Below, one piece after another: positions 11,152 to 32,336 of a stretch of 35,770 nt of DNA (position 1 is its first letter; each line of letters opens with the position of its first letter). Under the pieces are notes generated by a model. It was given only the letters and a program-made list of their open reading frames with translations. It searched no databases and had not been told where the DNA came from. The position numbers and the translations under genes were made by a program. This stretch comes from an uncultured Candidatus Saccharibacteria bacterium (lineage in GTDB: Bacteria; Patescibacteriota; Dojkabacteria; J137), in assembly GCA_965230975.1 (NCBI GenBank), contig OZ246402.1, forward strand, positions 1 through 35,770, given 5' to 3'.

Positions 11152-11181
11152 AAAAGGCCTAACATACATGTTAGGCCTTTT
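11152..11181 (-). terminator. Hairpin terminator abutting the 3' end of tRNA-fMet
   Basis: A 13-bp perfect stem pairs AAAAGGCCTAACA with TGTTAGGCCTTTT around loop TACA. On the minus strand it is followed by a T-rich tract (TTTTGATTT). Confidence 0.6.
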
Positions 11182-11255
11182 GGTTGCGGGGGTCCGATTC
11201 GAACGGACGACCTTCAGGTTATGAGCCTGACGAGCTGCCACTGCTCTACCCCGCG
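11181..11255 (-). tRNA. Initiator tRNA-fMet (CAU), CCA encoded
   Basis: The revcomp reads CGCGGGGTAGAGCAGTGGCAGCTCGTCAGGCTCATAACCTGAAGGTCGTCCGTTCGAATCGGACCCCCGCAACCA. It is nearly identical in layout to E. coli tRNA-fMet and has the diagnostic C1xA72 mismatch. The anticodon loop is CUCAUAA. Confidence 0.92.
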
Positions 11256-12358: not shown

Positions 12359-13237
12359 ATGAAAAAAAACTCATCACTGACAAATTTAGAATTGATAAAT
12401 AACTTTACTGAATATCTTAAAGAAAACAACAAGTCAGTGTCAACAATAATAGCCTATAAGAAAGATTTGCAACAGTTTAATGAAATTAATAAAGACAAAA
12501 GCTTTGATTTATACACTCCTGATGACATAAAATCCGCTGTTAACGAGCTTAGAAATGTCCATAAAGTAACATTAAAAACTGTATCAAGAAAAATCAATAG
12601 TATTAGAAGCTTTTTTAAATATCTTTATTCGAATCAATTAGTTAGCAATAACCCTTCTACAGAAATTAGTCATCCTAAATATAGAAATAAAAAACCTAGA
12701 GTTTTATCTCAAATGGAATATTATGCTCTAAGGGAAGCTAGTAGAAATAACTTTAGATTAAATACCATGATCGAGTTATTGCTACAAACCGGATTAAGAA
12801 TTAGCGAGCTTTCAAATTTGCAAAAAAGAGACTTGTACTTAGATGAAAAGAACCCATATTTAGTTGTGAGAGGATATTCCAGTACAGACGAACGAAGTGT
12901 GCCACTTAATTATAAGATTAAAGTATGCTTAAGGAATTATTTAAATCAAGACAATACAAAATTCCAACCATTATTCTCTACCAAAACAGGTAAAAATATT
13001 GAAATTAGGAATATTAGAACATCTATAGATAAAGCTATTGCCAACGCTCAAATAAAAAATGCATGCGTTAACGACTTAAGAAACACTTTTATTGTTGCCC
13101 AACTAAGTAGTGGTATGAGTTTAGATTTCTTGGCAAAAATAGTTGGCCATAAAAATATAAATACTACACTTAAGTACACCATGATGCTTTCAAAGAAATA
13201 TCAGCCAAGTTCTGTAAATCATGTAGTAGAATTGTAA
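12359..13237 (+). CDS. Tyrosine recombinase (XerC/XerD-like or phage-integrase family)
   Basis: 292 aa. The N-terminal SAM-like domain includes FTEYLKENNKSVSTIIAYKKDLQQF. Catalytic residues are Arg in LLLQTGLRISEL, a second Arg in DLRNTF, and His...Tyr in GHKNINTTLKYT. The gene lies ~550 bp from a tRNA with att-like repeats. Confidence 0.85.
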   Translation: MKKNSSLTNLELINNFTEYLKENNKSVSTIIAYKKDLQQFNEINKDKSFDLYTPDDIKSAVNELRNVHKVTLKTVSRKINSIRSFFKYLYSNQLVSNNPSTEISHPKYRNKKPRVLSQMEYYALREASRNNFRLNTMIELLLQTGLRISELSNLQKRDLYLDEKNPYLVVRGYSSTDERSVPLNYKIKVCLRNYLNQDNTKFQPLFSTKTGKNIEIRNIRTSIDKAIANAQIKNACVNDLRNTFIVAQLSSGMSLDFLAKIVGHKNINTTLKYTMMLSKKYQPSSVNHVVEL

Positions 13238-13828: not shown

Positions 13829-13854
13829 GGGCTAAATTCTTTTAATTTACTGAA

Positions 13855-13928
13855 TAGGCCTGCGCGGGCTCGAACCGCGGACCCCAGCTTTATAAGAACT
13901 GTGCTCTAACCACCTGAGCTACAGGCCT
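13855..13928 (-). tRNA. tRNA-Ile with a genomically encoded UAU anticodon
   Basis: The revcomp reads AGGCCTGTAGCTCAGGTGGTTAGAGCACAGTTCTTATAAAGCTGGGGTCCGCGGTTCGAGCCCGCGCAGGCCTA. The acceptor is AGGCCUG/CAGGCCU and the D stem GCUC/GAGC. The anticodon stem is CAGUU/AGCUG with loop CUUAUAA (anticodon UAU). The T stem is CGCGG/CCGCG. Confidence 0.85.
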
Positions 13929-13944
13929 ATTCAGTAAACTGGTA

Positions 13945-14189: not shown

Positions 14190-16643
14190 TTAAAAGCCTA
14201 AACCACCAAAAAGACTATCTTTCTTATCCTCTTTTTCCTTCTCTTTGGTAAAGGTACTTCTTAATTTAATCTCGTTTTCTATAATATTTCTATCTCTACC
14301 ATATTTAAGCCTTGAAATTTGCCTTGCGACTTCTGCAATTTCTTGATTAGGCTTACCAATCATATCATAAGGAGAATCTCCATAAAAAGACCTACAAGAG
14401 AATGCAGGAGTTGGCTTACCATCTGTAAGCATTTTTAAATAGAAACTATAGTTTTCTACCTGTTGCAAATCTTTTGGATCAACTAAATCTTCCCCTACCA
14501 CTTTACCCAAAAAAGGTGCATCCTCTTCTCCAATTCTCATAATTGCTTTGTTTCCAACATTACCAAATACCGCATCTTTAATTTTGGTGTTGCCACCCTC
14601 TCTAGTTAACTGTCCCAAGAACTGATGCCCAATTGTAAGTGCAAGTTTGTATTTTCTAGCTTCAGATAGAATAGTTACAATTCCATCTGTTAAAAAGTTT
14701 TGAAACTCATCTACATACAAGTAAAATGGAGTTCTTTCTGACTCCGGAACATTCTCTCTTTCTAAGGCTCCTACCAAAAGTTTACCAACCAAAACCATAC
14801 CTAATAAAGATGCATTAAAGTCTCCAATCTTACCTTTTGAGAGCTTAACAATTAGAATCTTCTTTTTATCCATTATTTCTCTAAATTTTATGGATGATTC
14901 TTGCTGAGAAACTATTGGCCTTAAATATGCATTTGATAAAAAGCTTGCCATTTTAGATGTGACATATGGGGTAACATTTTTTAGAGAAACATCTCCACCC
15001 GCCTGCTCTGCTTGTTTTTTCCAAAAATCTACGGTTTCTTGATTTTTACATTTAGAAAGTTTATATGCTCTATAACCCTCATCTGCAAAAACTTTTGGCA
15101 CTTCAAGCAAGGTTGCACCAGATTCAGTGTCTTCTGTTAATAATAAAATTGCGTACCTAAAATATTGTTCAAACATTGGGCCTCCAGTGACCTTCAAGTT
15201 GTACAAGGTATCAAATATATTCAACATTTCATTAATTGCCAATGTTCTTTGCTCCTCGTTATTAAACTCTAACATGTTTATTCCCACAGGTCTTTCAAGA
15301 TCTGCTGGGTCTACAATTACAACGTCTTCTATTCTTTCTGGGGGTACTTGAGCCAAAATTTTCTCGGCATCTGTTCCGTGAGGGTCTATATACCCACAAC
15401 CATGACCCATTTTCATGTCTCTAATCATCATTCCACTCATGAAACCAGATTTACCTGTACCTGTTTGTCCAATAACATAAAAATGTCTCAGCCTATCTTC
15501 TGGCTTTAAAAAGATTTCTCTAAACTGACCTCTATATGTATTTCGGCCAACATACATATAGTCTTTTTGAAAGCTATTAGTTACAAAATCTGGTGCTGGC
15601 AAACGTTTTGCCAATTGCCATTTAATATACGGTGTTTTTATATTTCTGTTTGGGAAGTGAAAAAGAGTTGCAAGTTCTGATGTGTTAAGAACCATAGAAT
15701 CTGAAGGGATTCTATATATAAATTCTGCCACTATGTTTTTTAAATTTTCGCTAGAAACTTTCTTTAGTTTATTACTACCAATCTTGGTAAATGGCTCAAA
15801 AGAACTTAACATGTTTGTTAAATGAGTATCTGCAGAAAACTTATCATCAGAAATAACTACTAATCTTGCACAAACATTAAATACAGGTTTTTGTATTTTT
15901 TGTTCTACAAAAGATAAACCCTCATCTTCTTTTTTAGGTTTTGGAGTCTCTCCTTCTTTTGGTGCAGGAGGTGGTTCTTTCATTTTATTTACATAGTCTT
16001 TTGTTTTATTTCTCCACTCAGAATCTGCCGGGGTTATAATTACTTGAAATGCGGCAGCTTCTTTATCTTGCAATTTACTAAATGCATCTGTAAGTGTTGA
16101 AATTGTATCTACAGGTAGTTCTTCGTAAGTTTGTATTGGATATTTAGAGTCCTTATCTAAAATAAGACCCGTATATGCAACGTGACTATCATCATCTGGA
16201 AAAAGGTTGTATTCTTTTACTATAGTTATTTCTGCTGTTGGGTATGTTCCATTAATTTGCCTATCTACAAGGCTTGAGATTTTTTTAGGGCAAACTACAT
16301 AAAACTTGATAGTTTCTTTAAAAGCGACCATTTCAAAACTAATAAATGACCTGGCTTTAATGTGTTTATTTAAACCTTTTAACTTTTCACTTACACTCAG
16401 TAAACCTGAATACAATTGCTCTGCAGCTTTAATTTCCACATCATTATTTTGAGGCAATTTAATTTCGTAAAATACCAAATTTAAGCCCTTTTCTTTTAAT
16501 ACATTCTCTTTAAATTTATTAAAAAGTTTTAATGCAATTATGTAAAGCACTATGAAAATAATTATCACAGCTACCAAACCAATTCCCAATGGAACTAAAA
16601 AATTGAAGTTGAAGTTTGTATTTAATATACTTTGAGACCTCAT
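14190..16643 (-). CDS. Membrane-anchored T4SS-type P-loop ATPase (VirD4/TraD/TrwB-like coupling protein; VirB4-like not excluded)
   Basis: 817 aa. It has an N-terminal TM helix (LVPLGIGLVAVIIIFIVLYIIAL), a ~350-aa N-domain and a Pro/Lys/Glu-rich linker (EPPPAPKEGETPKPKKEDE). Walker A is VIGQTGTGKSG and Walker B is FYLYVDEFQNF. ARKYKLALTIGHQFLGQL resembles the TrwB/TraD GxQxxxQL block. Confidence 0.65.
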   Translation of the reverse strand: MRSQSILNTNFNFNFLVPLGIGLVAVIIIFIVLYIIALKLFNKFKENVLKEKGLNLVFYEIKLPQNNDVEIKAAEQLYSGLLSVSEKLKGLNKHIKARSFISFEMVAFKETIKFYVVCPKKISSLVDRQINGTYPTAEITIVKEYNLFPDDDSHVAYTGLILDKDSKYPIQTYEELPVDTISTLTDAFSKLQDKEAAAFQVIITPADSEWRNKTKDYVNKMKEPPPAPKEGETPKPKKEDEGLSFVEQKIQKPVFNVCARLVVISDDKFSADTHLTNMLSSFEPFTKIGSNKLKKVSSENLKNIVAEFIYRIPSDSMVLNTSELATLFHFPNRNIKTPYIKWQLAKRLPAPDFVTNSFQKDYMYVGRNTYRGQFREIFLKPEDRLRHFYVIGQTGTGKSGFMSGMMIRDMKMGHGCGYIDPHGTDAEKILAQVPPERIEDVVIVDPADLERPVGINMLEFNNEEQRTLAINEMLNIFDTLYNLKVTGGPMFEQYFRYAILLLTEDTESGATLLEVPKVFADEGYRAYKLSKCKNQETVDFWKKQAEQAGGDVSLKNVTPYVTSKMASFLSNAYLRPIVSQQESSIKFREIMDKKKILIVKLSKGKIGDFNASLLGMVLVGKLLVGALERENVPESERTPFYLYVDEFQNFLTDGIVTILSEARKYKLALTIGHQFLGQLTREGGNTKIKDAVFGNVGNKAIMRIGEEDAPFLGKVVGEDLVDPKDLQQVENYSFYLKMLTDGKPTPAFSCRSFYGDSPYDMIGKPNQEIAEVARQISRLKYGRDRNIIENEIKLRSTFTKEKEKEDKKDSLFGGLGF

Positions 16644-17781: not shown

Positions 17782-20322
17782 TTACAAAGACACTTTTATA
17801 ATTTTTGACCCATCTAAAACATACACTGTATTTGTTGATTGATCTACCACAACCTCTTTTATATTAGAAAATATATTCTCTGTACCTCTATAAACAAATT
17901 GCTGAATAAACTTTACATTTTTTTGTTCATTATCTATAACTTCAAATACCATGACTCTTTTATTTTTTGGATCTGCAACTGCCATATAGTTTTGGTCAAG
18001 ATCAATTGCTGTAGCTTGTGATAAGGAGTTGAAATCAGTTTGAGCAAAGTTTTGATATGTTTCATAATTCAAACTATTGTCACCTCCTGCCAAGTATCTT
18101 TTAATACCTGTGCCCTCAATCAAAACATAAATTTCGTAAGGCACAGAGATATCTATAGCCCTAGCGAATTCTGCATCTGTCTTCCAATTTGGAGGATTAA
18201 TCGTTACATAAATTGAGCCTCCGCCTCCATAAGAATTACCTACTTTATCTCGTTTGAATATTTGCTGATGATTTTGGTGCAATTCGTATAGAGCATCATT
18301 ATTTGAATATATTGCTGCTTCGCTAATATTACCTATTAAAGCTGTAGACAAGCCGGCTAACCTTGTAAATTCTCCGGATTGTGTATTTAAAATACCCATA
18401 GAGCTTGATGTATCTGAATCGTAAACAACTAGATTATTTGCAGCATTTCTAACTAAATGTGCTGGTGTATTTAAGTTTTTAATTAGCTCTTGAGCAGTAG
18501 AGTTTACGCCTGTATTTATTTTGTAAACTACATTTCTTTTAGCATCTGTTGCATACAAGCTACCATTTGCAATAGCTAAATCTGATAGATTTGTATCTGA
18601 AAATAACTTGCCAACATCAGTTACTAATTGAATGTTTGACTCGTTAATCTCTTTAATAAAAGATAATGAATCTTTAGCTAAATTAATTTTCACTTTAAGT
18701 CTATCTAATTCATCTGTAAAAAGGTTCTCTTTCTTTTGAGTATCAATAGATGTAGCAAGTGTAGTTAATTTATTGCTTAAAATATCTTTTTTTGTTTGAT
18801 CTTGATTCTTAACAGTCTCAACTTGACTTACCGCTTGGTTAACTTCAGATTCTAATTGAGACACTTTAGATGTAACATTTTGAATTCTTTCTGATTCCCT
18901 TCTTGAATTATCTGCATCTTTCCAAGCGAAATAAATCAAACCTACTAAAATAATTAGTACAATAACCATTATTACTCTATTACGTTTTAATTTATCTGCA
19001 TTCTTTCTTCTATCTAACCTATCTAAACCTATAACATCATTTTTTAAAAACTGTAAAAACTTACCAAATAATATTTTAATTTTTTGGAAAAGTGTTTTAG
19101 CAACTTGCTGATATGTTTTTTGACCTGTAGAGCCCTCGCCTTTTTTAAAAGCAAAATTTTCTTTTAATGTAGCAGCAGTATTTTTTACACTTTCAAAAGT
19201 ATTTGAGTTTGCATTTGGGTTTTGAACATATGAGTTGTTTAAACCATTGTTTGTTGACTTTGAATCCTGATATTCATTGCTTTGATCATCTTCAAATTCT
19301 GTAAATTCAGGACCAACCTGTGCTTTATTTTTGTAAGTTGGTAACTTGGATGCTAAACCAGAGACTTTTTGAGATACATTCTTAAACCGGTTACCAAACT
19401 TATTTACAAGACCTACTGTGGTTGTGCTCTCTTCTACTAAATCGATATCATTCTCTCTACCATCATTTGCCCATTCATTATCATAAGGTATTGATTCTGT
19501 TTGCTCACCCGTAGGGTTTAATTGAGTAGATGATTGTAAATCATTTGAGTTGGTAAATGTATCTTCATTAAAATCATTAGGTGTATCTTCTATAAATTCT
19601 CCTATAGGGACTTGAGAGTCAATAACTTCAGTTGTATTGTCTACATCTATAATAGGAGCTTGTGGTACTGGTGCAAATGAATTCCAATTTTCAGATTCGT
19701 CTGCAAAGATCAATATTGCAGAACCTTTATCTTCTGATATATCTCCAAGTAAATCTACTTGTAAATACTTTGCTAATTCTTCTAATTTTGATAGTGAACT
19801 TGTATAAGGTGTTGATGTTGTTAACAAGATTCTATCTGAACTCTCAAGCTTTAAGCTACCTGTTTTTACAAAGCCCATCATATTTGCATCTACCAACCCT
19901 TTTGAAATATCTACAAGCTTTTGATTTCTGTAAATAAATAACTTACTGTCTCCAATAACCCCAACTGTTAGCAAATCTTTATTAACAAGTGCAATAGACA
20001 TTTCTATATCCATCCCTTTTTCTAAAATCTCATCTTCTCTAGATACAATTACCTCTAGTTTGGTTTTCATTTTTTGCAAAGCTTCTTCTAGCTTTACAAT
20101 CTCATCCTCTTCGACTAAATCGTTATAGTAAGCATCTTGAAACTCGTCTAGTAGCATTTTAGCTATTCTTTCTAACTCTACATTTTCTGCGTCGGATTTG
20201 AGTCTTACAACACAAAATAACTCACTTTCAATCTCAGCGCCTTCATCTGGCCTATAGCCGTAAATACCAGACCAGTCGTTACCTGAAATCTTTCCAACTA
20301 AGTAATTCGCTTTTATATTCAT
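17782..20322 (-). CDS. Bitopic protein: N-terminal PP2C/SpoIIE-like domain, TM helix, coiled coil, C-terminal beta-propeller-like repeats
   Basis: 846 aa. PP2C-like blocks are LLTVGVIGDSKLFIYRNQKL, SDRILLTTS and GSAILIFAD, but no DGHGG-type metal motif is seen. A long N/S/T/Q-rich linker leads to the TM helix VIMVIVLIILVGLIYFAW and a coiled coil. Blade-like repeats include LYATDAKRNVVYKI, LVVYDSD, YMAVADPKNKRVMVFEV and VYVLDGSKIIKV. Confidence 0.5.
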   Translation of the reverse strand: MNIKANYLVGKISGNDWSGIYGYRPDEGAEIESELFCVVRLKSDAENVELERIAKMLLDEFQDAYYNDLVEEDEIVKLEEALQKMKTKLEVIVSREDEILEKGMDIEMSIALVNKDLLTVGVIGDSKLFIYRNQKLVDISKGLVDANMMGFVKTGSLKLESSDRILLTTSTPYTSSLSKLEELAKYLQVDLLGDISEDKGSAILIFADESENWNSFAPVPQAPIIDVDNTTEVIDSQVPIGEFIEDTPNDFNEDTFTNSNDLQSSTQLNPTGEQTESIPYDNEWANDGRENDIDLVEESTTTVGLVNKFGNRFKNVSQKVSGLASKLPTYKNKAQVGPEFTEFEDDQSNEYQDSKSTNNGLNNSYVQNPNANSNTFESVKNTAATLKENFAFKKGEGSTGQKTYQQVAKTLFQKIKILFGKFLQFLKNDVIGLDRLDRRKNADKLKRNRVIMVIVLIILVGLIYFAWKDADNSRRESERIQNVTSKVSQLESEVNQAVSQVETVKNQDQTKKDILSNKLTTLATSIDTQKKENLFTDELDRLKVKINLAKDSLSFIKEINESNIQLVTDVGKLFSDTNLSDLAIANGSLYATDAKRNVVYKINTGVNSTAQELIKNLNTPAHLVRNAANNLVVYDSDTSSSMGILNTQSGEFTRLAGLSTALIGNISEAAIYSNNDALYELHQNHQQIFKRDKVGNSYGGGGSIYVTINPPNWKTDAEFARAIDISVPYEIYVLIEGTGIKRYLAGGDNSLNYETYQNFAQTDFNSLSQATAIDLDQNYMAVADPKNKRVMVFEVIDNEQKNVKFIQQFVYRGTENIFSNIKEVVVDQSTNTVYVLDGSKIIKVSL

Positions 20323-21428: not shown

Positions 21429-23222
21429 TTAGTTAACATTCAAATAGTAAGTTTGACTATAAATAAAGTCATTTGTCCCATTACTAGAAACCCATTCGTT
21501 CCAATAGTACTTAAACCACCAGCCACCAATAACCCTAATTTGACCGTTATTACCATTTAAATAAACTTTCTTAACTCTAAGAGATGGGTCACGCTCAAAA
21601 GATAAACTTTTTAGACCTCCAATATCTAGCATCCACTGACCCAATTGATTGTGGTAAAGCATTGATTCTATATTTGCCATGGTATAAGAATAAGTTTTCC
21701 ATTGCCACAAACCGCATGGTGAACCTTGGCAATAATAGTTCCAGTATAGTCGTGAGTTTTGAGCATATTGATTATCGTTAACAGACCTTAAATATGGCCG
21801 ATCTGCAGTTGCACTGCCTCCAAGACTTTGAAATCTTGTATCATAATCTGCTGATCCATTTCCCTGATTATTGTCTGCCGAATATAAAGCCTCTATTAAC
21901 TGACCTGAATAAGTAATTACCAAATCTTTTGTTTGTTGAACTAAATCCATCTCATTTTGATCTCCATTTTTAAAATAAGAAACCTGACAATATGTTGTTA
22001 AACAAATTGGATAATTAGGATCACCGTTATTTGTATATTTTGCTGCATAAGTTCTGGCAGCTATAATTTGAGCTTTTCTTGCCTCTGAATGCCACCCTTC
22101 TGGCATTTCACCCAAACCAGATAAATAAGAATCAAAGCTAACTCTATCTGTAACAACAGGACCATAGTAATTACCTCCATAATAACAACCCTCCTGATAT
22201 GGGGCTAAGGCTGGATTACCCTGACAATATTTAACACTTATTTGAGAATTTAACGAATATTGAACAACTTGTGCGCCAGTATAGTAAAACTGAAGTATTT
22301 GAGTTGCATTCAACCCTTGTTCTGCCGCACCCTTAGCCCCATATTGAGACATTCCAACTCCATGACCCATTGCCAAGTCCCTACCATTTCCGCAAAGGTA
22401 ATACGTACCGGCAGGTGCATTTGCATCTTTTATACAATTTGTATTTCCTAACGTACCTTGATTTTGACGTAAGATTTCCTCTTCCCTTAAAATTGCTTGA
22501 CGCTGTTCTTCACTTAATGACTGAATACTCCCTTGTATATTTTTTACACTTACTTGCAAATTATTTATTTGATTTCCGCTAAAAGATACCATATATGCTA
22601 AATATGCTATTTGAGCTTCTAAATCCCTTTTCTTTTGTTCAAGTTCAGATTGGGCCTTTTCTAAATCAGATTTAGCAGTTTCATATTTTGTTATTTCTTC
22701 AACTAGTGCTGTTATTTCTGTATTTACATAGCCAATATCTGTACTTTGCTTGTCCGCAACAATTTCTGTATATTTTTCGTTTTTTCTGAAATCATAATCC
22801 TCTTTTATAACCTTGTTAATGTCTGTATTTGTTGTTCTCCACTCCATATAATTAGATCTGACAGAATTTATTCTGGTAATTTCTCTTTGAAGCTTTTCAA
22901 GCTCTTTGAGCGCCCTGTTTTGATTGTATAAATCTAATTGTATTTTATTGTATTCGATTTCTGCCTCTATCTTTTTTATTTCAGCTTCAATTGCCGGAAC
23001 TCCTCCACCTATACTTGAAAGATCCTGAGTATATTTATCTAAATTTGTTTTGGCTTGTTCTAACTGACTTTGAGTTTGGTTAAGTTGATTTTGCTGGTTT
23101 AATATATCTTGTGCTATTTCTGCAGATGATTTAGCCAAGACAGTTAAAGGTAAAAAGGCAATTGAAAATGCTATTAAAACAATACTAATTTTGAAGATTT
23201 TAAAGGTTTTCATATAAGACAA
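21429..23222 (-). CDS. Secreted coiled-coil protein with SpoIID/LytB-like peptidoglycan-remodelling domain (segment order appears permuted)
   Basis: 597 aa. A signal peptide (FKISIVLIAFSIAFLPLTVLA) is followed by ~230 aa of coiled coil. SpoIID signatures are GHGVGMSQYGAKGAAEQGLNATQILQFYYTG, KAQIIAARTYAAKY, IEALYSADNNQGNGSAD and PYLRSV. Confidence 0.75.
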   Translation of the reverse strand: MSYMKTFKIFKISIVLIAFSIAFLPLTVLAKSSAEIAQDILNQQNQLNQTQSQLEQAKTNLDKYTQDLSSIGGGVPAIEAEIKKIEAEIEYNKIQLDLYNQNRALKELEKLQREITRINSVRSNYMEWRTTNTDINKVIKEDYDFRKNEKYTEIVADKQSTDIGYVNTEITALVEEITKYETAKSDLEKAQSELEQKKRDLEAQIAYLAYMVSFSGNQINNLQVSVKNIQGSIQSLSEEQRQAILREEEILRQNQGTLGNTNCIKDANAPAGTYYLCGNGRDLAMGHGVGMSQYGAKGAAEQGLNATQILQFYYTGAQVVQYSLNSQISVKYCQGNPALAPYQEGCYYGGNYYGPVVTDRVSFDSYLSGLGEMPEGWHSEARKAQIIAARTYAAKYTNNGDPNYPICLTTYCQVSYFKNGDQNEMDLVQQTKDLVITYSGQLIEALYSADNNQGNGSADYDTRFQSLGGSATADRPYLRSVNDNQYAQNSRLYWNYYCQGSPCGLWQWKTYSYTMANIESMLYHNQLGQWMLDIGGLKSLSFERDPSLRVKKVYLNGNNGQIRVIGGWWFKYYWNEWVSSNGTNDFIYSQTYYLNVN

Positions 23223-24618
23223 TTACCTGCCTTATATTGTTATATTTTTCTATGATTTCGTCAAATCTAAGTTGCTTACAGAAAATTACAAGTGGCAAAT
23301 ATACTTTTGTATTTTGAGTTTGATTATTGCCCTGCATTAACATTGAAATGTATTCATCATCCGGCTTTACAGATAAATTTGAAGAAAACTCAATATTTTC
23401 TTTTTCTATTTTTAAAATATCCAACTCTCTTCTTTTTTTATAATAGGTATCTACATCTATATTTTGCTTTTCTAGTTCTTCTAAACTTTTTTTTGATTCC
23501 TCTATTTGCGAAATTGTATTTTTTAAAGATGACTGAATATTTTCTAAGGTTTCACCTCCAAGGGATTTATTTATATTTTGATTTATATTCTCCTGCTCTG
23601 CTAATAAAGCATTTAAGTATGCACCCTTTACCATCTTCATATCTTCGGCTTGTGTTGCAAAAAGTTGTACATCAGTACCTTGTGGTATAGGAGCTACAGG
23701 CATTTGTTCATTTTTTTTGATCTCTTTTTTATTACTAACCTGTATAACAACAAATATCACAAGAAAAGTCATAGACACTGCTAAACCCAAAAGTAATAAG
23801 CCTATATTTGATGAAATCAAAAAATAAACTATGCTTGCTAAAACCTGAATAACAACAAGGGCTAAGATCCACTTATGTTTTAGTTTAATTGGATCTGGTT
23901 CTATTTTGTAGGTTTCTGCCATTCTACTAGCCTGCTTAAAACCACCACTTAATTTTTGATTTAACTGATCAATTCTCTCTTCTTTAATTTTATTTATCTC
24001 ATCTGTTTTATGATGTGCATTTTCATTTTGAACCTTTAAAACCTCTGACTCTACCTTTGTTTTGCCATCTAACAAAGATTGTACAGATGCAAGCTTTTGT
24101 TCTAAATTACCTTTAGATTTCTCTAATTCTGAAATCTTGCTGTTTAAAGACTCCTTGTTTGTTTTTTGACTTTGATAACCCGATACATCTTTATCTAAGT
24201 TCTTAATTTTGATAAGTATTTCTGCAAGCTTATTAAAATTTGCAATTTCATTTTCTTGCATACCATTTGTAAGCTGTTGAAATTTTGAATTTACATTCGT
24301 AGATGGCGTAGCTACATTTAACCCAATAGATTTTTCTTGAGCTATAGAATCTATATTTAATTGTGCAGTTTCAGGCAAAAGAATGTATTCACTTAGCAAT
24401 TGATTGTGAACAGGAATTTGTAAACCTTGTAAAAATGTAAGGTAGTTTGCAACAGATAAATGCTCTTGGCCATCAACTAATATATTTGATTCTACAGAGG
24501 ATTGGCCTCCGTTTAGAAAGTTTTTTATTTCTGATGCAACTTCGCTAGATATTGATACAGGTGCATTAGTATTTAAAACCAAATCTTTAATTTTTAGTGA
24601 CTTTATATCTATTCTCAT
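23200..24618 (-). CDS. Coiled-coil membrane protein with central TM hairpin
   Basis: 472 aa. Long heptad-like stretches lie on both sides of two adjacent TM helices (WILALVVIQVLASIVYFLI and LLLLGLAVSMTFLVIFVVIQV). Its end overlaps the SpoIID-like gene start. Confidence 0.55.
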   Translation of the reverse strand: MRIDIKSLKIKDLVLNTNAPVSISSEVASEIKNFLNGGQSSVESNILVDGQEHLSVANYLTFLQGLQIPVHNQLLSEYILLPETAQLNIDSIAQEKSIGLNVATPSTNVNSKFQQLTNGMQENEIANFNKLAEILIKIKNLDKDVSGYQSQKTNKESLNSKISELEKSKGNLEQKLASVQSLLDGKTKVESEVLKVQNENAHHKTDEINKIKEERIDQLNQKLSGGFKQASRMAETYKIEPDPIKLKHKWILALVVIQVLASIVYFLISSNIGLLLLGLAVSMTFLVIFVVIQVSNKKEIKKNEQMPVAPIPQGTDVQLFATQAEDMKMVKGAYLNALLAEQENINQNINKSLGGETLENIQSSLKNTISQIEESKKSLEELEKQNIDVDTYYKKRRELDILKIEKENIEFSSNLSVKPDDEYISMLMQGNNQTQNTKVYLPLVIFCKQLRFDEIIEKYNNIRQVIVLYENL

Positions 24619-24681: not shown

Positions 24682-25488
24682 TTAATTTTGAAGCCAAGTA
24701 CCCCGATCTGCAGTACTACCGCCTGTTGCGCACACAAAGAACATACGACTTGCTGCACCTGCTGAATCTGGAGCTAAGTTTTCTGTATATATTTGAGTGG
24801 TTGTAATATACCTTTCGCCACAAAAGATCATTGACCCCGGGTTGCTACAAGCTAATCCATCTGGCAATGTGCCCCCAGATTCACAAGTATTTCTAAGGTA
24901 AGTTTCGTTTCCAGTACATATGCTTGTAAAAAAGAATTGAAATCCGGGCATATTTACGTTGTAACATTCTACATCTGTATTTACACCAAGCAATCTAAAC
25001 ACCGTTGTTAAAATTGGAACTGCCAAAAAAACTAGTATAAAACCTATTACGTAATTAATTATCTTTTTTCTAAGCTCTACTAGTTGATTGTCAGAAGTTC
25101 CACCTCTTAAAATATATTGATAGCCTAAAACCACAAGTAACACAAAAGAAAAAGATGCAACGAGTGCCCAAATTATGTATAAAATTCTAATAAACCAAAG
25201 TTCTATCTGCTGCAAAGCTGGTGGTATTAAATAAGCTCTATCATCTCCGGAAACGCCATCATCATCTAGGCCTCTACATAAATAATAGCCTGTTGCACTA
25301 TCTTTATAAATCGTTGCACTACTTCTGTTTCCAAATTTATCTAAACATTGGTAAGATGCTTCATCGTTACCTGAAAATGGGTTTGTTTGAATTTGTGCTT
25401 GGGCAATAGTTGGGAAAGCGATAGTAAAAAGAAGGCCTAATACTAGGCCAACTTTTAATTTATTTTTAGGTAAACCTATTAAATTCAT
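24682..25488 (-). CDS. VirB2/TrbC-like pilin paralog 6 with Cys-containing N- and C-terminal extracellular extensions
   Basis: 268 aa. The signal peptide ends AFPTIAQA. The core is TM, RGGTSDNQLVELRKK, TM. There are 8 Cys, 6 of them in the ~95-aa C-terminal module. Confidence 0.5.
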   Translation of the reverse strand: MNLIGLPKNKLKVGLVLGLLFTIAFPTIAQAQIQTNPFSGNDEASYQCLDKFGNRSSATIYKDSATGYYLCRGLDDDGVSGDDRAYLIPPALQQIELWFIRILYIIWALVASFSFVLLVVLGYQYILRGGTSDNQLVELRKKIINYVIGFILVFLAVPILTTVFRLLGVNTDVECYNVNMPGFQFFFTSICTGNETYLRNTCESGGTLPDGLACSNPGSMIFCGERYITTTQIYTENLAPDSAGAASRMFFVCATGGSTADRGTWLQN

Positions 25489-25491
25489 TAA

Positions 25492-25980
25492 TTAGTTTAA
25501 ATCATTTGTAATTTGATCTACTCCTTCTTGTGGCAATGGGTTTGTTAATGCACCAGTTGCCTCAAATAGTACCAAAATCAAGACTAGGCCAATAACACCT
25601 ACAAACAATGCTATTAAACCAACAAATACGCTTTTAATTGCTTTTTGTGCAGATTCAATTTTATCTTTATCTCCTTCAGATCTAATATATTTAATAGCAG
25701 CTTTAATAACAATGTAAACAGCAACAACAATAATTGCAATAAAGATAAACGATGCTCCTAATCTTGCCAAGTTTACTGCTTGTTGTGCTAAAGTTGTTTT
25801 ATCTGGAACAGCATCGGCTTTTCCTGAACAAACGCTATCTATACCAAAAGCCCCAATGTTTTTAATGAATGGGAATATATCACAAACTACACTACCTGTT
25901 GTTTGTGCATGAACCGGAATTGGGTTTATAGTTAAAGTTGCTAATGCGATTGCTGTTGCTACCAAAAGTTTCCTAAACAT
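25492..25980 (-). CDS. VirB2/TrbC-like pilin paralog 5
   Basis: 162 aa. The signal peptide ends PVHAQ. The core is TM (ASFIFIAIIVVAVYIVI), KYIRSEGDKDKIESAQKAIK, TM (VFVGLIALFVGVIGLVLILVL). It has 2 Cys. Confidence 0.6.
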   Translation of the reverse strand: MFRKLLVATAIALATLTINPIPVHAQTTGSVVCDIFPFIKNIGAFGIDSVCSGKADAVPDKTTLAQQAVNLARLGASFIFIAIIVVAVYIVIKAAIKYIRSEGDKDKIESAQKAIKSVFVGLIALFVGVIGLVLILVLFEATGALTNPLPQEGVDQITNDLN

Positions 25981-26043
25981 AGTTATCTTTTAAAATCTAT
26001 AAATTAATTAAATCACAATTATTTTAACACTGCAATAGAATTA

Positions 26044-26493
26044 TTAAAGAATAGGTAAATCCACCAAAGGTGGATCTTCAACCTGCTCATTAAAAATACC
26101 TGTTGCATCAAATAATACTGATATTACTATAATACCTATTACACCAACAAAGATTATTATTATTCCAAAAAATACACCTCTAATATTTTCAATACCTTCT
26201 TGAACTTTATCTTTGTCTCCTTCACTTCTGACAATCTTTAATACTGCTCTAATAATTAAAATTATCCCAAGCCCAATTATTGCAACAAATACCAGCGTTA
26301 AACCAAGTTTTATTAAATTACCCGAATCTGTATATGCACTTGCACAATCACCATTTGGGCAGCCTCCAACATCTGCACAAGGTATAAAATCACATAATCC
26401 TTGTGCTTTAATGCTTAAGTTAAAAAGACCGGGTAAAAAAGACGAGAATATTAAGATTAGTGCAAAAAATATAGTAAATAGTTTTGTTTTCAT
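26044..26493 (-). CDS. VirB2/TrbC-like pilin paralog 4
   Basis: 149 aa with a signal peptide and the motif CDFIPCADVGGCPNGDC (4 Cys). The core is TM, KIVRSEGDKDKVQEGIENIR, TM. The loop is near-identical to paralog 5. Confidence 0.6.
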   Translation of the reverse strand: MKTKLFTIFFALILIFSSFLPGLFNLSIKAQGLCDFIPCADVGGCPNGDCASAYTDSGNLIKLGLTLVFVAIIGLGIILIIRAVLKIVRSEGDKDKVQEGIENIRGVFFGIIIIFVGVIGIIVISVLFDATGIFNEQVEDPPLVDLPIL

Positions 26494-26505
26494 ATTGTTT
26501 TTAAA

Positions 26506-27030
26506 TTAAATTAGGCCCCCTCCCCCTGATGACCCACCAGTGTTTGAGGTATAACCACATTCTGCATCTGCTTCTTCCCTAGCATTTGCTCCACCTTTAT
26601 CTAAAAATGCCTGGAAATAGTAGTCGTAATCTGCAGATTCACAAGATCTAAACATTCTAGGCCACTCAAATATTGTTCCTAGGCCAGCAAATATTCCAAT
26701 AATACTTAAAATGACAGGAAATAAAAAACTCATAAAAACCCCTAGCAATATGTTTTGAAGTTTTTTTATTAGTTCTTGAATCTTATCGGCCTTTCCACCG
26801 CTTTGCATTCCTTCTACCCCTAACTGCACAATTTTAACTATCCAAAAAGCTACTATACCCAAGGTTGCAATTACCCCTAAAAAGGAAAGTAATGAAAAAA
26901 CAGTAGATGCAGACCCTGCAACAGCGCTAAAATCTACAAATAGTGGAATTGTTATTGGTTTTAAATTAACTTCGTCTGGTAAGTTTACTGTTGATTGTTG
27001 CAAAATTGTACTAATTATAGTTTGTAACAT
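26506..27030 (-). CDS. VirB2/TrbC-like pilin paralog 3 (no obvious cleavable signal; C-terminal extension)
   Basis: 174 aa. The core is TM (FLGVIATLGIVAFWIV), GMQSGGKADKIQELIKKLQN, TM. The C-terminal tail has 2 Cys and a Gly/Ser-rich end. Confidence 0.5.
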   Translation of the reverse strand: MLQTIISTILQQSTVNLPDEVNLKPITIPLFVDFSAVAGSASTVFSLLSFLGVIATLGIVAFWIVKIVQLGVEGMQSGGKADKIQELIKKLQNILLGVFMSFLFPVILSIIGIFAGLGTIFEWPRMFRSCESADYDYYFQAFLDKGGANAREEADAECGYTSNTGGSSGGGGLI

Positions 27031-27032
27031 AT

Positions 27033-27770
27033 TTATTGAATAACAATTGTTGGCACACCGGAATCCACTGGTGCATCTGGGTTAACCTGAAAATTAATTG
27101 TATTTAATGCAGGCAAACCAAGTATGCTAAATATAATTTGGGTTATTAACAAGAATGTAAGCGCCAAAATAAAGCCAATCAAAATAGCCCTTGCTTCTTT
27201 ACTAACAGCTGCAATATCTTCTTCTTTTGTAGTATTTGGTAATTTTATAGCATATATATAAATACCTCTAAATGCAGCGTAAATTGCCAAAACACCTATA
27301 ACTGTTGAGAATATAAAATTAATGATTGTAGGGATTTTTTCGTATGTAATATTTACTTTTGTGTTAAATATTTCAAAAGCAAAAAAATTAAGCTCAGCTG
27401 GAGTATCTATAGCAACACTCTCGTCTTTACATTTATTTTCACAACAATCTACCCTGCCAGAAGAACCTGGAGTCGGTAATGATTTAGCTAAAATACATGC
27501 GTAATCGGGTTCATACTCTCCAGGTCCGGAACAACCTGCTGGAATACATGTAGATTGAATAGGACAAGCGCACACACCTGAACCACTAGAACTTTCTGTA
27601 CAGTAATATTGATTACCACCTCTAGTTGCACACCATTCAGTTACTAACTTACCCCTACAAAGTGAATCACTTAGTGGGCCACAATCTTGTGCCTTCACGT
27701 TATTAGAAACCAAGAACGATGCTATTACTAAGAAAGCTGTAAATAAAAATATTTTAAAGATATTATTCAT
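27033..27770 (-). CDS. VirB2/TrbC-like pilin paralog 2 with N-terminal 12-Cys module
   Basis: 245 aa with a signal peptide, then a ~90-aa module containing 12 Cys. The core is TM (FSTVIGVLAIYAAF), KLPNTTKEEDIAAVSKEAR, TM (ILIGFILALTFLLITQIIF). Confidence 0.5.
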   Translation of the reverse strand: MNNIFKIFLFTAFLVIASFLVSNNVKAQDCGPLSDSLCRGKLVTEWCATRGGNQYYCTESSSGSGVCACPIQSTCIPAGCSGPGEYEPDYACILAKSLPTPGSSGRVDCCENKCKDESVAIDTPAELNFFAFEIFNTKVNITYEKIPTIINFIFSTVIGVLAIYAAFRGIYIYAIKLPNTTKEEDIAAVSKEARAILIGFILALTFLLITQIIFSILGLPALNTINFQVNPDAPVDSGVPTIVIQ

Positions 27771-27773
27771 ATT

Positions 27774-28151
27774 TTAAAAAATATTAAGAGTATCTACTCC
27801 TAAGAAACTTGCAACCACACCTGTTATAGCTGGTGCGAATACTGCAATTGCCATACCAACAATTGCTGCAACAATAATATTTCTTGCTGTTTTAATTTTA
27901 CCCTCATCTCCTTGAGATGTTAGCCAAACCGCAGCAGCATAGAGAATCATTCCAATAAATGTGAGTATAAATAATGGTCTAATTAAGCTTGTTGCAAAGT
28001 TTATTACTTGTTCTAAATCATCAAATACAGTTGGATTTGGAATTTGAGGTAAACCCAAACTGCCAGAGCTAGCAAAAGTTGTAATTTTAAAAGATAAAGA
28101 AAAAACTAGCACTAATAAAAAAAGAACAAATTGTTTGGTTAACTTTTTCAT
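27774..28151 (-). CDS. VirB2/TrbC-like pilin paralog 1 (minimal form)
   Basis: 125 aa. The signal peptide ends TTFASS. The core is TM (LFILTFIGMILYAAAVWL), TSQGDEGKIKTARN, TM (IIVAAIVGMAIAVFAPAITGVV). It has no Cys. Confidence 0.6.
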   Translation of the reverse strand: MKKLTKQFVLFLLVLVFSLSFKITTFASSGSLGLPQIPNPTVFDDLEQVINFATSLIRPLFILTFIGMILYAAAVWLTSQGDEGKIKTARNIIVAAIVGMAIAVFAPAITGVVASFLGVDTLNIF

Positions 28152-28206
28152 AAATTTAATTTAAGATACTCATAATTTAATACATATTGACTTAATTATC
28201 AAAAAA

Positions 28207-30771
28207 TTACTTAACTTCTTGAATAGATAATCCGTTCAAAAAAACATCATCACCATCTTTTACATTACCTAAAATTATTTCATTTGCTAATATGTCTTCT
28301 ATTCTTTCTTGCACAACCCTTCTCAACTCTCTAGCACCCCACAATGGTGAGTAACCTATTTTGGCCAGTTCTTCTAATGTCTTATCATTCCAATGAATTA
28401 CAATACCTTTCTCGATTAACTTCGTATTGACTTCTGCTAAGAATTTCTCAACAATTTTTGTAATTTCTAACAAACTTAAATGTTTAAACATTATTAATTT
28501 ATCAAATCTATTTAAAAATTCAGGTCTAAAATAATTACTTAATATTTCTAAAGATGAACTTTTTATTTCTGAATAGCTCTCTTTTTGCTGGTATAACTTT
28601 TGAATCTCTTTTGACCCTACATTTGAAGTCATAATTATAATTGTATTGTAAAAATCTATTTTTCTTCCCATTCCATCTTTAAAGAATCCATCATCTAAGA
28701 CAGATAAAAATAAATCCAAAACTTTAGGATTTGCTTTTTCAATCTCATCTAATAATACCAAGGCAAAAGGCCTTGACCGAACTGTGTCTGCTAAAAAGCC
28801 TTTTGTATAACTCCCATCAGAATTATAACCACCTATCAATCTTGTTAAATTTTGCTCTTCTTGATATTCGGACATATCTATTCTAATCATTAAGTTCTCA
28901 CTTCCGTAATATAAATCTGCCAATGCTTTTGCTAATTCTGTTTTGCCTACCCCTGTTGGTCCGTAAAATAAAAACGAAGCTATTGGTTTTTTACTATTGG
29001 TTAATCCGGACCTTGATCTTTTAATTGCAGCAACTACAGGAGTTATTGCTTCGGTTTGACCAACTACTCTACTTTTTAAATTATCTTCCAAATTACCAAG
29101 CACCTGTTTTTCATCTATACCTAAGTTTCCAATCTTTACGCCAAGTTTTGTATAAAGAAGCTCTTCTACCAAAGAACCGTCCAAATAGTTGAAACCTTTA
29201 GACTTTGCCAAAACCATAGCCTCTTCTAATAAATCCATGCCTTTTAAAGGCATCTTTTTTTCGTAATCAAATTTATATGCATAATCTACAATTCTTTTAA
29301 GTGCCGAAAATTGAATAGATATTTGATTTTTGCTCTCTTTGCTAAGTGCTTCATCTGCCATTATTTGTAATGCAATTTGTGGGTCGGGCTCTTTAATTTC
29401 TAAAACATCAAATTTAGAAGCTAAATCTAAATCACTTTTTATATATTTTTGATAGTTTAATGGTTCATCAATCGCAATAAATTTAATTTTATTATCTAGT
29501 AGATTTTTTAATAGATTAACTGCTTCATCTTTCAAATTAGATCTAAAACTAAATAAACTTGTAAAGTTTTCACCAATTAATAGAATTTCACCAGATGCAG
29601 AAACCTCTTGAAATATTGCCAAAAATATTTTTTTTATATCTTCTATGCTTTGGGCATTTGCTATTATTTTTGCAAAGTTTAAAACAACAAGCCTACTATC
29701 TTTTAATTTTGAAGGCACGTCTTCTACTACCATTCTTGTAGCTAAATATTTTATAAAGGTTGTTTTGCCAACTCCACTTTCACCAAGCAAATAAACAAAT
29801 GTAGATGTATCTCTTTCTAGCAAAGACAATAAATTTGTCATTAACTCTTCTTTCCCAATTGAAATGCTAAAACTTCTGTTTGCGGCCTGGCTTGTTAAAT
29901 CTTGCCCGTATTTATCTAGCGTTGGAGTAATTGTAGATGTATATGTTGTATTTACGTCCCCAATCGGTTTAAGCTGGGACAAGATTTTCCATTTTTTTTG
30001 GTACTCAAATTTTTGATTTGAGTTAGAGTACCATTTTCTTAGGCCATCAAGTTCTAAATCTGTTACCTTGTTTTCTATCAAGCCAGGCCGCAAGTAATAT
30101 TTAAGCAATGTAAAAAATATTACATAAAGATTAATTCCAGATGTATTAAGTAAAATCCCTTCATTTAATAGTCTAGAAAAGAAATTTACATAATCTTCTG
30201 AAAAAGTTAAAAAGGTGGTTTTATTAACAAATTCATTTAATTGATCTGCATTTAACCCTAGCCTTTTTGAAAGGATGTTTGAAAACCTGGAGTCTTTTAT
30301 TAAGCTACTAAAAAGATATTTAATATAAGTGCTATCTTTATTATAAAGCTGATTTAATAACATTGAGGACTCTATATCTAAAAAGTCATTAATATAAAAC
30401 CCTTTTTCTTTTTTATTGGCAGATGCAAAGATTTTTGTGAGTTTTTGTTTTTTATGATTTAGTTCTAGGCTATTTCTGTCTCTTTTTAAAAAGTACCCAA
30501 TTATCAGTGAGACAATTAATAAATAAGGTATTAAATGTAATATACTTTTTGGCTTAATAAAATCTGCAAAATAGAATGTACCCTGTAATATCAAAATTCC
30601 AAAAACAATCAGTAATAAGATTATTGAAATTGAGATTAAAAAATTACCCAACTTTCTCTCTTGATTGTAACGTTCATGTTTTAAGCCGTTGTATTCAAAT
30701 AGTCTGCCAAAATCCAAGTAAATATAGATATTTCTAAATTCGAATAGTTTTTCAATACCTTGGTTTTTCAT
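28207..30771 (-). CDS. Membrane-anchored Hsp100/Clp-family double-AAA+ ATPase (ClpB/ClpA/ClpV-like; D1 degenerate, D2 intact)
   Basis: 854 aa with two N-terminal TM helices (FLISISIILLLIVFGILIL and LIPYLLIVSLIIGYF). D1 has Walker A GESGVGKT, but Walker B is ILLIGE (usual ILFIDE) and SKF replaces RRF. D2 has GPTGVGKTELAKALA, LVLLDEIEKA, MTSNVGS, PEFLNRFD and GARELRR. No M-domain-length insert or IGF/IGL ClpP loop is seen. Confidence 0.8.
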   Translation of the reverse strand: MKNQGIEKLFEFRNIYIYLDFGRLFEYNGLKHERYNQERKLGNFLISISIILLLIVFGILILQGTFYFADFIKPKSILHLIPYLLIVSLIIGYFLKRDRNSLELNHKKQKLTKIFASANKKEKGFYINDFLDIESSMLLNQLYNKDSTYIKYLFSSLIKDSRFSNILSKRLGLNADQLNEFVNKTTFLTFSEDYVNFFSRLLNEGILLNTSGINLYVIFFTLLKYYLRPGLIENKVTDLELDGLRKWYSNSNQKFEYQKKWKILSQLKPIGDVNTTYTSTITPTLDKYGQDLTSQAANRSFSISIGKEELMTNLLSLLERDTSTFVYLLGESGVGKTTFIKYLATRMVVEDVPSKLKDSRLVVLNFAKIIANAQSIEDIKKIFLAIFQEVSASGEILLIGENFTSLFSFRSNLKDEAVNLLKNLLDNKIKFIAIDEPLNYQKYIKSDLDLASKFDVLEIKEPDPQIALQIMADEALSKESKNQISIQFSALKRIVDYAYKFDYEKKMPLKGMDLLEEAMVLAKSKGFNYLDGSLVEELLYTKLGVKIGNLGIDEKQVLGNLEDNLKSRVVGQTEAITPVVAAIKRSRSGLTNSKKPIASFLFYGPTGVGKTELAKALADLYYGSENLMIRIDMSEYQEEQNLTRLIGGYNSDGSYTKGFLADTVRSRPFALVLLDEIEKANPKVLDLFLSVLDDGFFKDGMGRKIDFYNTIIIMTSNVGSKEIQKLYQQKESYSEIKSSSLEILSNYFRPEFLNRFDKLIMFKHLSLLEITKIVEKFLAEVNTKLIEKGIVIHWNDKTLEELAKIGYSPLWGARELRRVVQERIEDILANEIILGNVKDGDDVFLNGLSIQEVK

Positions 30772-31091
30772 ATTCTAAAGACAAATCTTATAACCCCGTA
30801 TACTGGTATAAAAGGTAATATTGCCAATAATACTAGTAATAAAATTGGGAGTACTACTTTAAAAATGCTAATTATGGTTCCCAAACTAATCCACCAAAAC
30901 TTTACTATCTTGCCAAACATAAGTCCAAAGCCGGAATTATCTTTATATAAAGGGATATTAAAAGTCTTTGCGAAAGGCAAAGCCCTGGTTTTATTCATAG
31001 AAAAAATAAAGGTTGCTAAGACTTTATCATTCAAAAAGCCCCAACAAACAACCGAATACCACCAGTTAAAAACTTCTAGAAACAAAGACAT
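30768..31091 (-). CDS. Small polytopic membrane protein, translationally coupled to the Clp-like ATPase
   Basis: 107 aa with hydrophobic helices (WWYSVVCWGFL, FWWISLGTIISIF and VLPILLLVLLAILPFIPVYGVI). Its stop overlaps the ATPase start in a 4-nt ATGA overlap. It is preferred over the mirror-image plus-strand ORF 30760-31104. Confidence 0.5.
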   Translation of the reverse strand: MSLFLEVFNWWYSVVCWGFLNDKVLATFIFSMNKTRALPFAKTFNIPLYKDNSGFGLMFGKIVKFWWISLGTIISIFKVVLPILLLVLLAILPFIPVYGVIRFVFRI

Positions 31092-32289: not shown

Positions 32290-32306
32290 TATATATTTAT
32301 TATGTT

Positions 32307-32336
32307 AAAAAGGGCTCCCTTCGGGAGCCCTTTTTT
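32307..32336. terminator. Bidirectional rho-independent terminator between convergent genes
   Basis: AAAAAGGGCTCCC-TTCG-GGGAGCCCTTTTT forms a perfect stem with A and T tracts on both sides. It sits between the 31993-32289 stop and the groEL stop. Confidence 0.8.

Follow-up and report, generated by a model that had tools for sequence, protein, structure and literature searches.

Pilin genes in series are already known from the Patescibacteria. VirB2-like pilins occur in 1,948 assemblies of this phylum, and 441 arrays of 2-11 genes have been counted in 383 assemblies as part of a type IV secretion system (T4SS) (Quinonero-Coronel et al. 2025, PMC12102498); the paralogs of such arrays average ~25% identity, and their variation has been considered as a possible variation of host range (PMC12102498). 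In Southlakia epibionticum, an essential pilin series lies inside a T4SS/VirB4 cluster (Wang et al. 2023, PMC10633639). For its life as an epibiont, the only patescibacterium amenable to genetics requires a T4SS-like apparatus and its pilin series. Here we describe a related locus on contig OZ246402.1 (positions 1 to 35,770; this whole 35.8-kb stretch of DNA is called the window below), in which six small pilin-like genes are headed by the genes of a small membrane protein and of a membrane-anchored two-ring Clp/Hsp100 ATPase. The likeness to the patescibacterial T4SS arrays lies in the chromosomal tandem of highly divergent VirB2-like genes (Pfam PF18895/PF04956); the S. epibionticum pilins sit in a VirB4 cluster, whereas the array of the window is headed by the anchored Clp and its partner. 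A preliminary description of this DNA had called the locus a candidate new pilus or secretion module, which overstates its novelty, as arrays of this kind have been catalogued in hundreds of assemblies and are essential in one species. What does appear to be undescribed is an anchored Clp with a detachable membrane subunit and, in one lineage, its strict coupling to an ordered array. Indeed, neither 'Clp' nor 'AAA' occurs in the two papers cited above (0 occurrences in PMC12102498 and PMC10633639), and searches on Patescibacteria, ClpB/Hsp100, pilins and membrane anchoring found no paper describing a Clp-pilin pairing, as the preliminary description had supposed; nor was any literature found on a family of anchored two-ring Clp proteins.

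Several ATPases invite comparison with the Clp of the window. Like ClpB/Hsp104, it has two AAA+ modules, a ClpB_D2-small domain, no ClpP-docking loop and possibly a Clp_N-like fold, and its second AAA+ module (D2) aligns end to end with Thermus thermophilus and Escherichia coli ClpB (E 1e-103 to 1e-99). It differs from ClpB in the lack of the M-domain, which ClpB requires for its cooperation with DnaK, in the presence of a transmembrane hairpin, in an odd Walker B motif and a missing pore tyrosine in the first module (D1), and in a D2 pore loop that is not the GYVG of ClpB. ClpV/TssH of the type VI secretion system (T6SS) is an Hsp100 dedicated to secretion; it is independent of ClpP, like the window Clp, and disassembles a polymer whose subunits are reused. 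However, ClpV is soluble, both of its rings are active, and its N-domain is what contacts the VipB/TssC sheath, whereas the window Clp is anchored in the membrane and no T6SS genes are found in the window or in the related loci. ClpV is also not the one Hsp100 dedicated to a secretion machine, as had been stated at first, since HSP101 of the Plasmodium translocon of exported proteins (PTEX) is another. HSP101 is a ClpB-like ATPase at a membrane transport machine, and Foldseek ranks its N-domain first among the structures similar to the N-domain of the window Clp, with a weak E value. It has no transmembrane segment and docks through its D2 end onto the EXP2 pore, whereas the window Clp is anchored at the N-terminal entry end, so that its threading direction relative to the membrane would be opposite to that of HSP101. 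In FtsH and Msp1/ATAD1, an N-terminal anchor likewise keeps the entry face of the hexamer under the membrane, and these enzymes pull membrane proteins out; yet they belong to another AAA+ clade, have a single ring and are not linked to pilins, and FtsH carries a protease domain. Finally, work by Kerr and Christie from 2010 is said to have found that VirB4, at the cytoplasmic face, dislocates membrane-integrated VirB2 pilin in pilus biogenesis. VirB4 is thus a functional precedent for the role that we propose below, but it belongs to another family of ATPases, not to the threading Hsp100s.

Organization of the locus

The module is encoded by eight genes on the minus strand. In the following, p1-p6 are the six small pilin-like genes in order of transcription, and numbers with the letters L and P are labels for related loci and proteins, respectively; aa stands for amino acids, nt for nucleotides and HMM for hidden Markov model.

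30768-31091, minus strand: small membrane protein, 107 aa; its stop codon and the start of the Clp gene share 4 nt (ATGA)
28207-30771, minus strand: membrane-anchored two-ring Clp/Hsp100 ATPase, 854 aa; matches AAA_2 (1e-49) and ClpB_D2-small
27774-28151, minus strand: p1, 125 aa; PF18895 above threshold
27033-27770, minus strand: p2, 245 aa, with a Cys-rich domain N-terminal of the core; PF18895 at E 0.013 and core HMM
26506-27030, minus strand: p3, 174 aa, without signal peptide; core HMM and phmmer links
26044-26493, minus strand: p4, 149 aa; core HMM
25492-25980, minus strand: p5, 162 aa; PF18895 at E 0.014 and core HMM
24682-25488, minus strand: p6, 268 aa, extended at both termini by Cys-containing stretches; PF18895 at 25.4 bits (E 1.5e-5) and core HMM

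The eight reading frames with their coordinates, the 4-nt overlap, the gaps and the six loop sequences are all present as first described. From Clp-p1 through p5-p6, the gaps measure 55, 3, 2, 12, 63 and 3 nt, and no terminator-like fold was found in the three longest gaps of the cluster. In three related loci (L005, L172 and L173), the Clp gene even runs 4 nt into the first pilin-like gene. Upstream, the unit is bounded by an intrinsic terminator after groEL.

32305-32335, minus strand: intrinsic terminator, a GC-rich hairpin of 13 bp with a U run behind it

The free energy of this hairpin is -21.9 kcal/mol (z -5.8), and none of 200 shuffled sequences folds equally well; it is not among the listings of the terminator scan. 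One opposite-strand gene and a HAD hydrolase gene lie between it and the Clp module. The promoter scan returned fewer sigma-70-like sites than shuffled sequences did and is uninformative for this organism.

A membrane-anchored, atypical Hsp100

The ATPase is not an ordinary ClpB, ClpA, ClpC or ClpV; it is a membrane-anchored, atypical Hsp100. Its top match among PDB sequences is T. thermophilus ClpB (E 4.5e-103), and its scores against the NCBIfam equivalogs reach about a third to 40% of the respective cutoffs (433.6 of 1232.1 for ClpB, TIGR03346; 396 of 993 for ClpA; 343.7 of 884.95 for ClpV, TIGR03345). From the N-terminus on, the protein is composed as follows.

30484-30660, minus strand: transmembrane hairpin, residues ~38-96, by hydropathy and AlphaFold
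29974-30474, minus strand: divergent Clp_N-like helical domain, residues ~100-266, by Foldseek of the AlphaFold model
29212-29874, minus strand: D1 AAA+ module, degenerate, with a non-canonical Walker B and no pore Tyr
28237-29145, minus strand: D2 AAA+ module, intact, with invariant Walker A and B

The two N-terminal transmembrane helices of the preliminary description are borne out by two strong hydrophobic segments in residues 38-96 and by the AlphaFold model, which places helices at 31-62 and 77-96 (predicted local distance difference test score, pLDDT, of ~80-94 in these blocks). Lys/Arg-rich stretches lie on either side of the hairpin; by the positive-inside rule, both the N-terminus and the ATPase would thus be cytoplasmic. 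A profile of the N-terminal region of the Clp (A5), searched in 1.84 billion representative proteins with E up to 1e-3, retrieved 187 representatives (clusters at 50% identity), which makes this a rare family; 93 of them are full-length, and 90 of these 93 have a transmembrane segment within the first 200 aa. All orthologs align with the window Clp from residue 1 on, and the short overlap with the gene upstream is mostly conserved. The anchor is thus a family trait and not a gene-calling error, a concern that had been raised at the outset. A genome scan with the alignment of the N-terminal region and D1 found at least two members of the anchored-Clp family among 80 loci; in a metagenome scan of the same kind, the matches listed were ordinary ClpA/ClpB only, as the generic Clp motif dominates such a search.

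The domain behind the anchor has no Pfam Clp_N (PF02861) match, and hhalign aligns it only weakly to Clp_N sequences (37% probability, E 4e-4). Most of the 20 best Foldseek matches of the modelled domain are Clp N-domains, with target-normalised TM-scores of 0.5-0.62 and weak E values of 0.2-0.5; they include PfHSP101 (4irf/4iod, probability 0.99), ClpB (1khy, 0.97) and the N-domains of ClpC/ClpC1.

The two rings differ in the state of their motifs. In D1, the Walker A motif GESGVGKT is intact, while Walker B reads LLIGEN in place of hhhhDE; within the Dojkabacteria clade the last two residues of this motif are GE, ED, EE, DD or DN, and never DE. The position of the D1 pore-loop Tyr (KYRGEFE in ClpB) is Ser in the window Clp. 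In D2, neither Walker A (GPTGVGKT) nor Walker B (LLDEIEKA) varies within the family, and the pore loop GGYNSDGSYTKG keeps the conserved aromatic residue (Y or F). D2 is therefore the likely motor of the protein. The segment between TSN and EFLNRF of D2 aligns gap-free to ClpB, and no ClpP-docking [ILVM]G[FLM] motif was found in it in 11 family sequences (the pattern that delimits the segment is unmatched in L174). The D1 alignment ends at residue 520 and that of D2 begins at 535, an interval that spans ~135 residues in T. thermophilus ClpB; this ~15-residue joint means that there is no M-domain.

These features bear directly on the simplest alternative, namely that the protein is the ordinary housekeeping ClpB/ClpC of the organism, its N-terminus being either mis-called or a trivial extension, and that the small open reading frames encode unrelated membrane proteins. 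Its D2 is ~45% identical to that of ClpB, which is also the top PDB match, and two homologs are named 'ClpC' by the Joint Genome Institute. Nevertheless, the N-terminal alignment, the conserved upstream overlap and the transmembrane segment of nearly every full-length relative speak against a mis-called start; the M-domain, the ClpP loop, the canonical D1 Walker B and the D1 pore Tyr of a housekeeping enzyme are all missing, the NCBIfam scores stay far below their cutoffs, and the small proteins match T4SS_pilin and TrbC. This alternative is largely refuted, and we regard it as very improbable.

Conservation of the module

Ten further loci were recovered from homologs of the Clp, from the small protein and, in reverse, from the pilin homolog P0097, and the reverse look-up led to the same module. 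The order of small protein, Clp and 6-8 pilin-core genes is found in the window and in L001, L003, L005, L009, L090, L171, L172, L173 and L174. L010 is consistent with it; its contig ends inside a Cys-rich first gene resembling that of L005. The pilin-core genes per locus are as follows.

Window, L001, L003, L009, L090: 6 each
L171, L172, L173: 7 each
L174: 7, with p1 duplicated
L005: 8

The Clp proteins of these ten loci are 31-66% identical to that of the window, and two of the loci come from Dojkabacteria assemblies. The adjacency of Clp and pilin-like genes, which had been seen in a single genome, is therefore conserved in 10 of 10 other related loci, including those with rearranged flanks: L010 and L171 lack groES-groEL upstream, and L005, L172 and L173 have other genes downstream. 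No locus of the Dojkabacteria clade without an array was met among those recovered. The three-part unit is a conserved, lineage-specific operon, and the lineage is probably Candidatus Dojkabacteria (WS6, Patescibacteria). The Clp-pilin association is confined to this one lineage; a link that reaches beyond it did not hold up at two distant anchored relatives, which are considered below.

The pilin-like proteins

In hydropathy plots, all six proteins have two hydrophobic helices around a short charged loop. A signal-peptide-like N-terminus, first ascribed to most of them, is present in five of six, the exception being p3; the p3 orthologs in L001, L003 and L009 do have an N-terminal hydrophobic segment. 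Against PF18895 (T4SS_pilin), p1 scores 30.8 bits with a gathering threshold of 26.6, p6 falls just below it with 25.4 bits, and p2 and p5 are sub-threshold (E ~0.013-0.014); p2 also matches the Mbov_0395 pilin-like family of NCBIfam (1.8e-4). No PF18895 match was found in p3 and p4, and both are joined to the class by paralogy and by our own core HMM only. The six are tied together by phmmer, which links p3 to p4, p5 and p6, and the iterated core HMM matches array genes only, in twelve loci of up to ~36 kb each. All 13 homologs of p1 match PF18895, and 5 of the 13 also match PF04956 (TrbC/VirB2; best 1e-4). AlphaFold models p1 as a signal-peptide helix followed by a hairpin (helices 46-77 and 83-116; pLDDT 81 overall and 87-96 in the hairpin blocks). 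Taken together, these matches support the assignment of the small proteins to the VirB2/TrbC-type class of putative T4SS pilins. The pilin identity given in the preliminary description thus stands with p1 above the threshold and p6, p2 and p5 below it; p3 and p4 are left without a Pfam match, and a fold match was not obtained (see below).

Within the window, BLAST detects similarity only between p4 and p5 (50% identity over 74 aa), while the orthologs at the same position in different genomes are 31-59% identical. The best matches of p2 lie at the same position in L001, L003, L009 and L090 (31-38% identity), with none in L005. Same-position orthologs are likewise found for p3 (31-42%), for p4 in other genomes, and for p6 (43-47% over 219-239 aa). 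Among the four other six-gene arrays, the best match of p5 is at the same position with the sole exception of L009, where it is p4. By this pattern of identities, the six paralogs are ancient orthologs at fixed positions and not recent variants. The fixed order and the same-position orthologs suggest a heteromeric structure with six distinct roles, and such fixed roles fit better than interchangeable antigenic variants. Where the paper of 2025 considers variation for host range (PMC12102498), the orthologs described here argue for fixed and distinct roles, and ancient paralogs at fixed positions change how pilin arrays in this phylum are read.

The shortest of the six, p1, is also the best pilin match and thus the candidate major subunit. 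In such a heteromeric structure, p1 may be the major subunit, and p2 and p6, whose outer domains are rich in Cys, may be accessory ones. Domains of this kind beyond the pilin core are present in p2 and p6 and also in L005 (12574-13773), L171 (9834-11096), L172 (12925-14037) and L173 (12902-14065); such array members are possibly adhesin-like or tip subunits. In a second subclade, the first array gene encodes 370-420 aa, with the pilin core at the extreme C-terminus. The duplicated p1 of L174 (9536-9928 and 10001-10408; 130 and 135 aa) is the only recent-looking duplication in any array.

The small membrane partner

The C-terminal half of the 107-aa protein is hydrophobic. Its family comprises 49 clusters of 76-124 aa, and where source names are given they are those of Candidatus Dojkabacteria only. 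Every related locus has a copy immediately before the Clp gene, and the two genes mostly overlap by 4 nt. Clp proteins that are more distant carry this module fused to their N-terminus, as in P0016 (hhalign with an alignment of seven true orthologs of the 107-aa protein, 88% probability, E 3e-6) and, by hmmsearch, in P0231 (4e-11) and P0170 (5e-8), both of which are two-ring Clp proteins by Pfam. This fusion pattern argues that the small protein and the Clp work as one membrane complex, with the former as a putative partner or anchor of the latter. The Clp ATPases described here, two-ring proteins anchored in the membrane and provided with a detachable membrane subunit, make up a rare family.

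A conserved and sometimes fused membrane partner would also suit an export motor of the PTEX/HSP101 type, in which the hexamer, with 12 transmembrane helices and the small protein, forms a threading translocon that pushes unfolded effectors or the Cys-rich domains of the pilins across the membrane, with the pilins as the outer conduit. The nearest structural matches of the N-domain include that of PfHSP101, and the ATPase is ClpP-independent and lacks the M-domain. The geometry is unfavourable, however. In PTEX, the D2 exit of HSP101 faces the pore, whereas the anchor on the N-terminal entry side of the window Clp turns the D2 exit to the cytoplasm. In addition, the five pilins with ordinary signal peptides should use Sec, and no channel-forming protein was identified. 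We therefore consider an export motor improbable.

A possible role in handling pilin subunits

We propose that the Clp may act on the pilins with which it is encoded. The anchor lies ~15 residues before the N-domain, so that the entry face, made of the N-domain and D1, would be held against the cytoplasmic face of the membrane in the geometry of FtsH/Msp1, and the motor would pull on cytoplasm-exposed parts of membrane proteins. As a ClpP-independent Hsp100 with a degenerate D1, it would be driven by the D2 ring. The co-encoded pilins would be its likeliest clients, offering the short charged loop between their helices as the only cytoplasmic part. By dislodging, holding or removing membrane-embedded pilin subunits, the Clp could control the subunit pool for a T4SS-type filament, whether it assists assembly as a chaperone, takes part in quality control or recycles subunits once the filament is disassembled.

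The gene context makes it an evenly balanced proposition that the Clp is a lineage-specific accessory motor with a pilin-dedicated role; the extraction or recycling mechanism is what we infer from the same context. The more specific proposal, in which the Clp and its small partner would form a dedicated motor that extracts, holds or recycles the membrane-embedded VirB2-type subunits of a heteromeric filament of six components and would represent a new class of pilus accessory ATPase, is a tentative one that we hold to be doubtful. If true, an Hsp100 would serve a T4SS-type pilus in the way that ClpV serves the T6SS sheath. It would be a third case in which a secretion or surface machine has recruited an Hsp100, and the strictly linked anchored unfoldase would rank as the first accessory-factor candidate in the building of VirB2-type filaments in a single-membrane bacterium. 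The pairing may reveal a new helper for building or recycling essential surface filaments.

Several points weigh against this proposal. A pull toward the cytoplasm is the opposite of pilus extrusion. A Foldseek search of the p1 model against the PDB gave no match with E <1, and a profile search of PDB sequences with p1 returned nothing relevant; short helical hairpins are poorly discriminated in both kinds of search, and the pilin call thus rests on sequence family and architecture. Genes for VirB4, VirB3 or VirB6 were found neither in the window nor in the flanks (~10 kb) of the related loci. In the portion of Table S1 of PMC12102498 on which we draw, two Dojkabacteria assemblies are flagged 'Yes', which we interpret as VirB4 being present, and such a VirB4 could dislocate pilins without any Clp. 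No pilin-core genes lie within ~10 kb of two distant anchored Clp relatives (P0015 in L089 and P0016 in L007), which are found beside RF-1 or MraZ; the ancestral job of the family need not involve pilins, and the anchored Clp is older or broader than its link to them. Most conserved loci also share a wider synteny, with groES-groEL upstream and SpoIID and SmpB downstream, which means that part of the adjacency is inherited gene order.

The same flags in Table S1 led us to reject the idea that the Clp replaces a missing VirB4. If they do denote VirB4, the Clp would add to VirB4 and would be no substitute for it.

The distant relatives and the shared synteny would be expected if the Clp were a general quality-control chaperone or dislocase for membrane proteins, comparable to a protease-less FtsH or to Msp1, with the pilins as at most one abundant client and an adjacency due to inherited gene order or shared high expression. 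The breadth of the family, with its 187 representatives and about 90 membrane-anchored full-length members, agrees with such a general function, as do the neighbours RF-1 and MraZ, the wider syntenic block common to the same genomes, and the position of groES-groEL a few genes upstream on the same strand in 8 of 11 loci. On the other hand, the adjacency to the array outlasts changes of the flanks (L010, L171, L005, L172 and L173), in three genomes the end of the Clp gene shares 4 nt with the first pilin-like gene, and the Dojkabacteria clade yielded no array-less locus. In the window, groES-groEL is separated from the module by a strong terminator and an opposite-strand gene. A search for the CIRCE heat-shock operator gave no match and thus no support for a shared heat-shock regulon. 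A general dislocase seems to us possible, though on the unlikely side, and the pilin-dedicated motor is the reading that we carry forward.

Beside these loci, a conserved single-ring AAA+ protein of 390-440 aa (AAA, AAA_2, Lon_lid) is encoded a few genes upstream of groES-groEL in relatives, outside the window (L001 837-2006, L003 1968-3296, L005 1719-2966, L090 2206-3393, L172 562-1734, L173 1438-2685). These genomes thus hold other AAA+ unfoldase-like genes.

Neighbouring genes and minor observations

The window is a piece of bacterial chromosome with a low GC content of ~31%, and it encodes an rRNA operon, tRNAs, PolA, FtsH, SmpB and GroES/GroEL. Three genes downstream of the module deserve mention.

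23200-24618, minus strand: coiled-coil protein, 472 aa, with a central double-transmembrane segment (residues 246-297); 63 nt downstream of p6
21429-23222, minus strand: protein of 597 aa that combines a SpoIID/LytB domain with a long coiled coil; 23-nt overlap with the 472-aa gene
14190-16643, minus strand: VirD4/TraD-type coupling-protein-like ATPase, 817 aa; TraG-D_C at 22.3 bits, DUF87

The gap between p6 and the 472-aa gene is without a terminator-like fold, and this gene is possibly a further member of the operon. At a similar place after the array, a protein of 358-520 aa without Pfam match is encoded in L001, L003, L090 and L174; none is found there in L005, L172 and L173. With similarly placed genes after the array in several loci, the 472-aa and 597-aa genes may belong to the same unit as the array, perhaps with a part in cell-wall remodelling. 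The absence of T6SS genes and of VirB6, noted in the preliminary description, was confirmed, but the VirD4/TraD-like protein, an ATPase of the T4SS type, had gone unlisted there. Its gene lies ~8 kb from the pilin array, its NCBIfam matches to SXT_TraD and CD1115 are weak, and the related loci hold syntenic copies (~819 aa, DUF8128).

Between these genes, an 846-aa protein (17782-20322, minus strand) has no Pfam match and a weak PP2C-phosphatase-like N-terminus, and it is syntenic beside smpB in relatives. A reading frame of 115 aa (2369-2716, plus strand) is spurious, being wholly within the 16S rRNA gene (1558-3077). The gene of a XerC/XerD-type tyrosine recombinase (12359-13237, plus strand) adjoins tRNA genes. 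Two genes of the tRNA-Met(CAU) type are close by (10981-11054 and 11181-11255, minus strand), one of which may be the initiator or a lysidine tRNA-Ile. The anticodon of the tRNA-Ile at 13854-13929 (minus strand) is UAU, and tRNA-Ile(UAU) is uncommon in bacteria. Finally, the 5' part of the 23S rRNA (1-993, minus strand) takes up 993 nt for model positions 1-843, which suggests an insertion of ~150 nt; such insertions are often seen in the rRNA of Patescibacteria.

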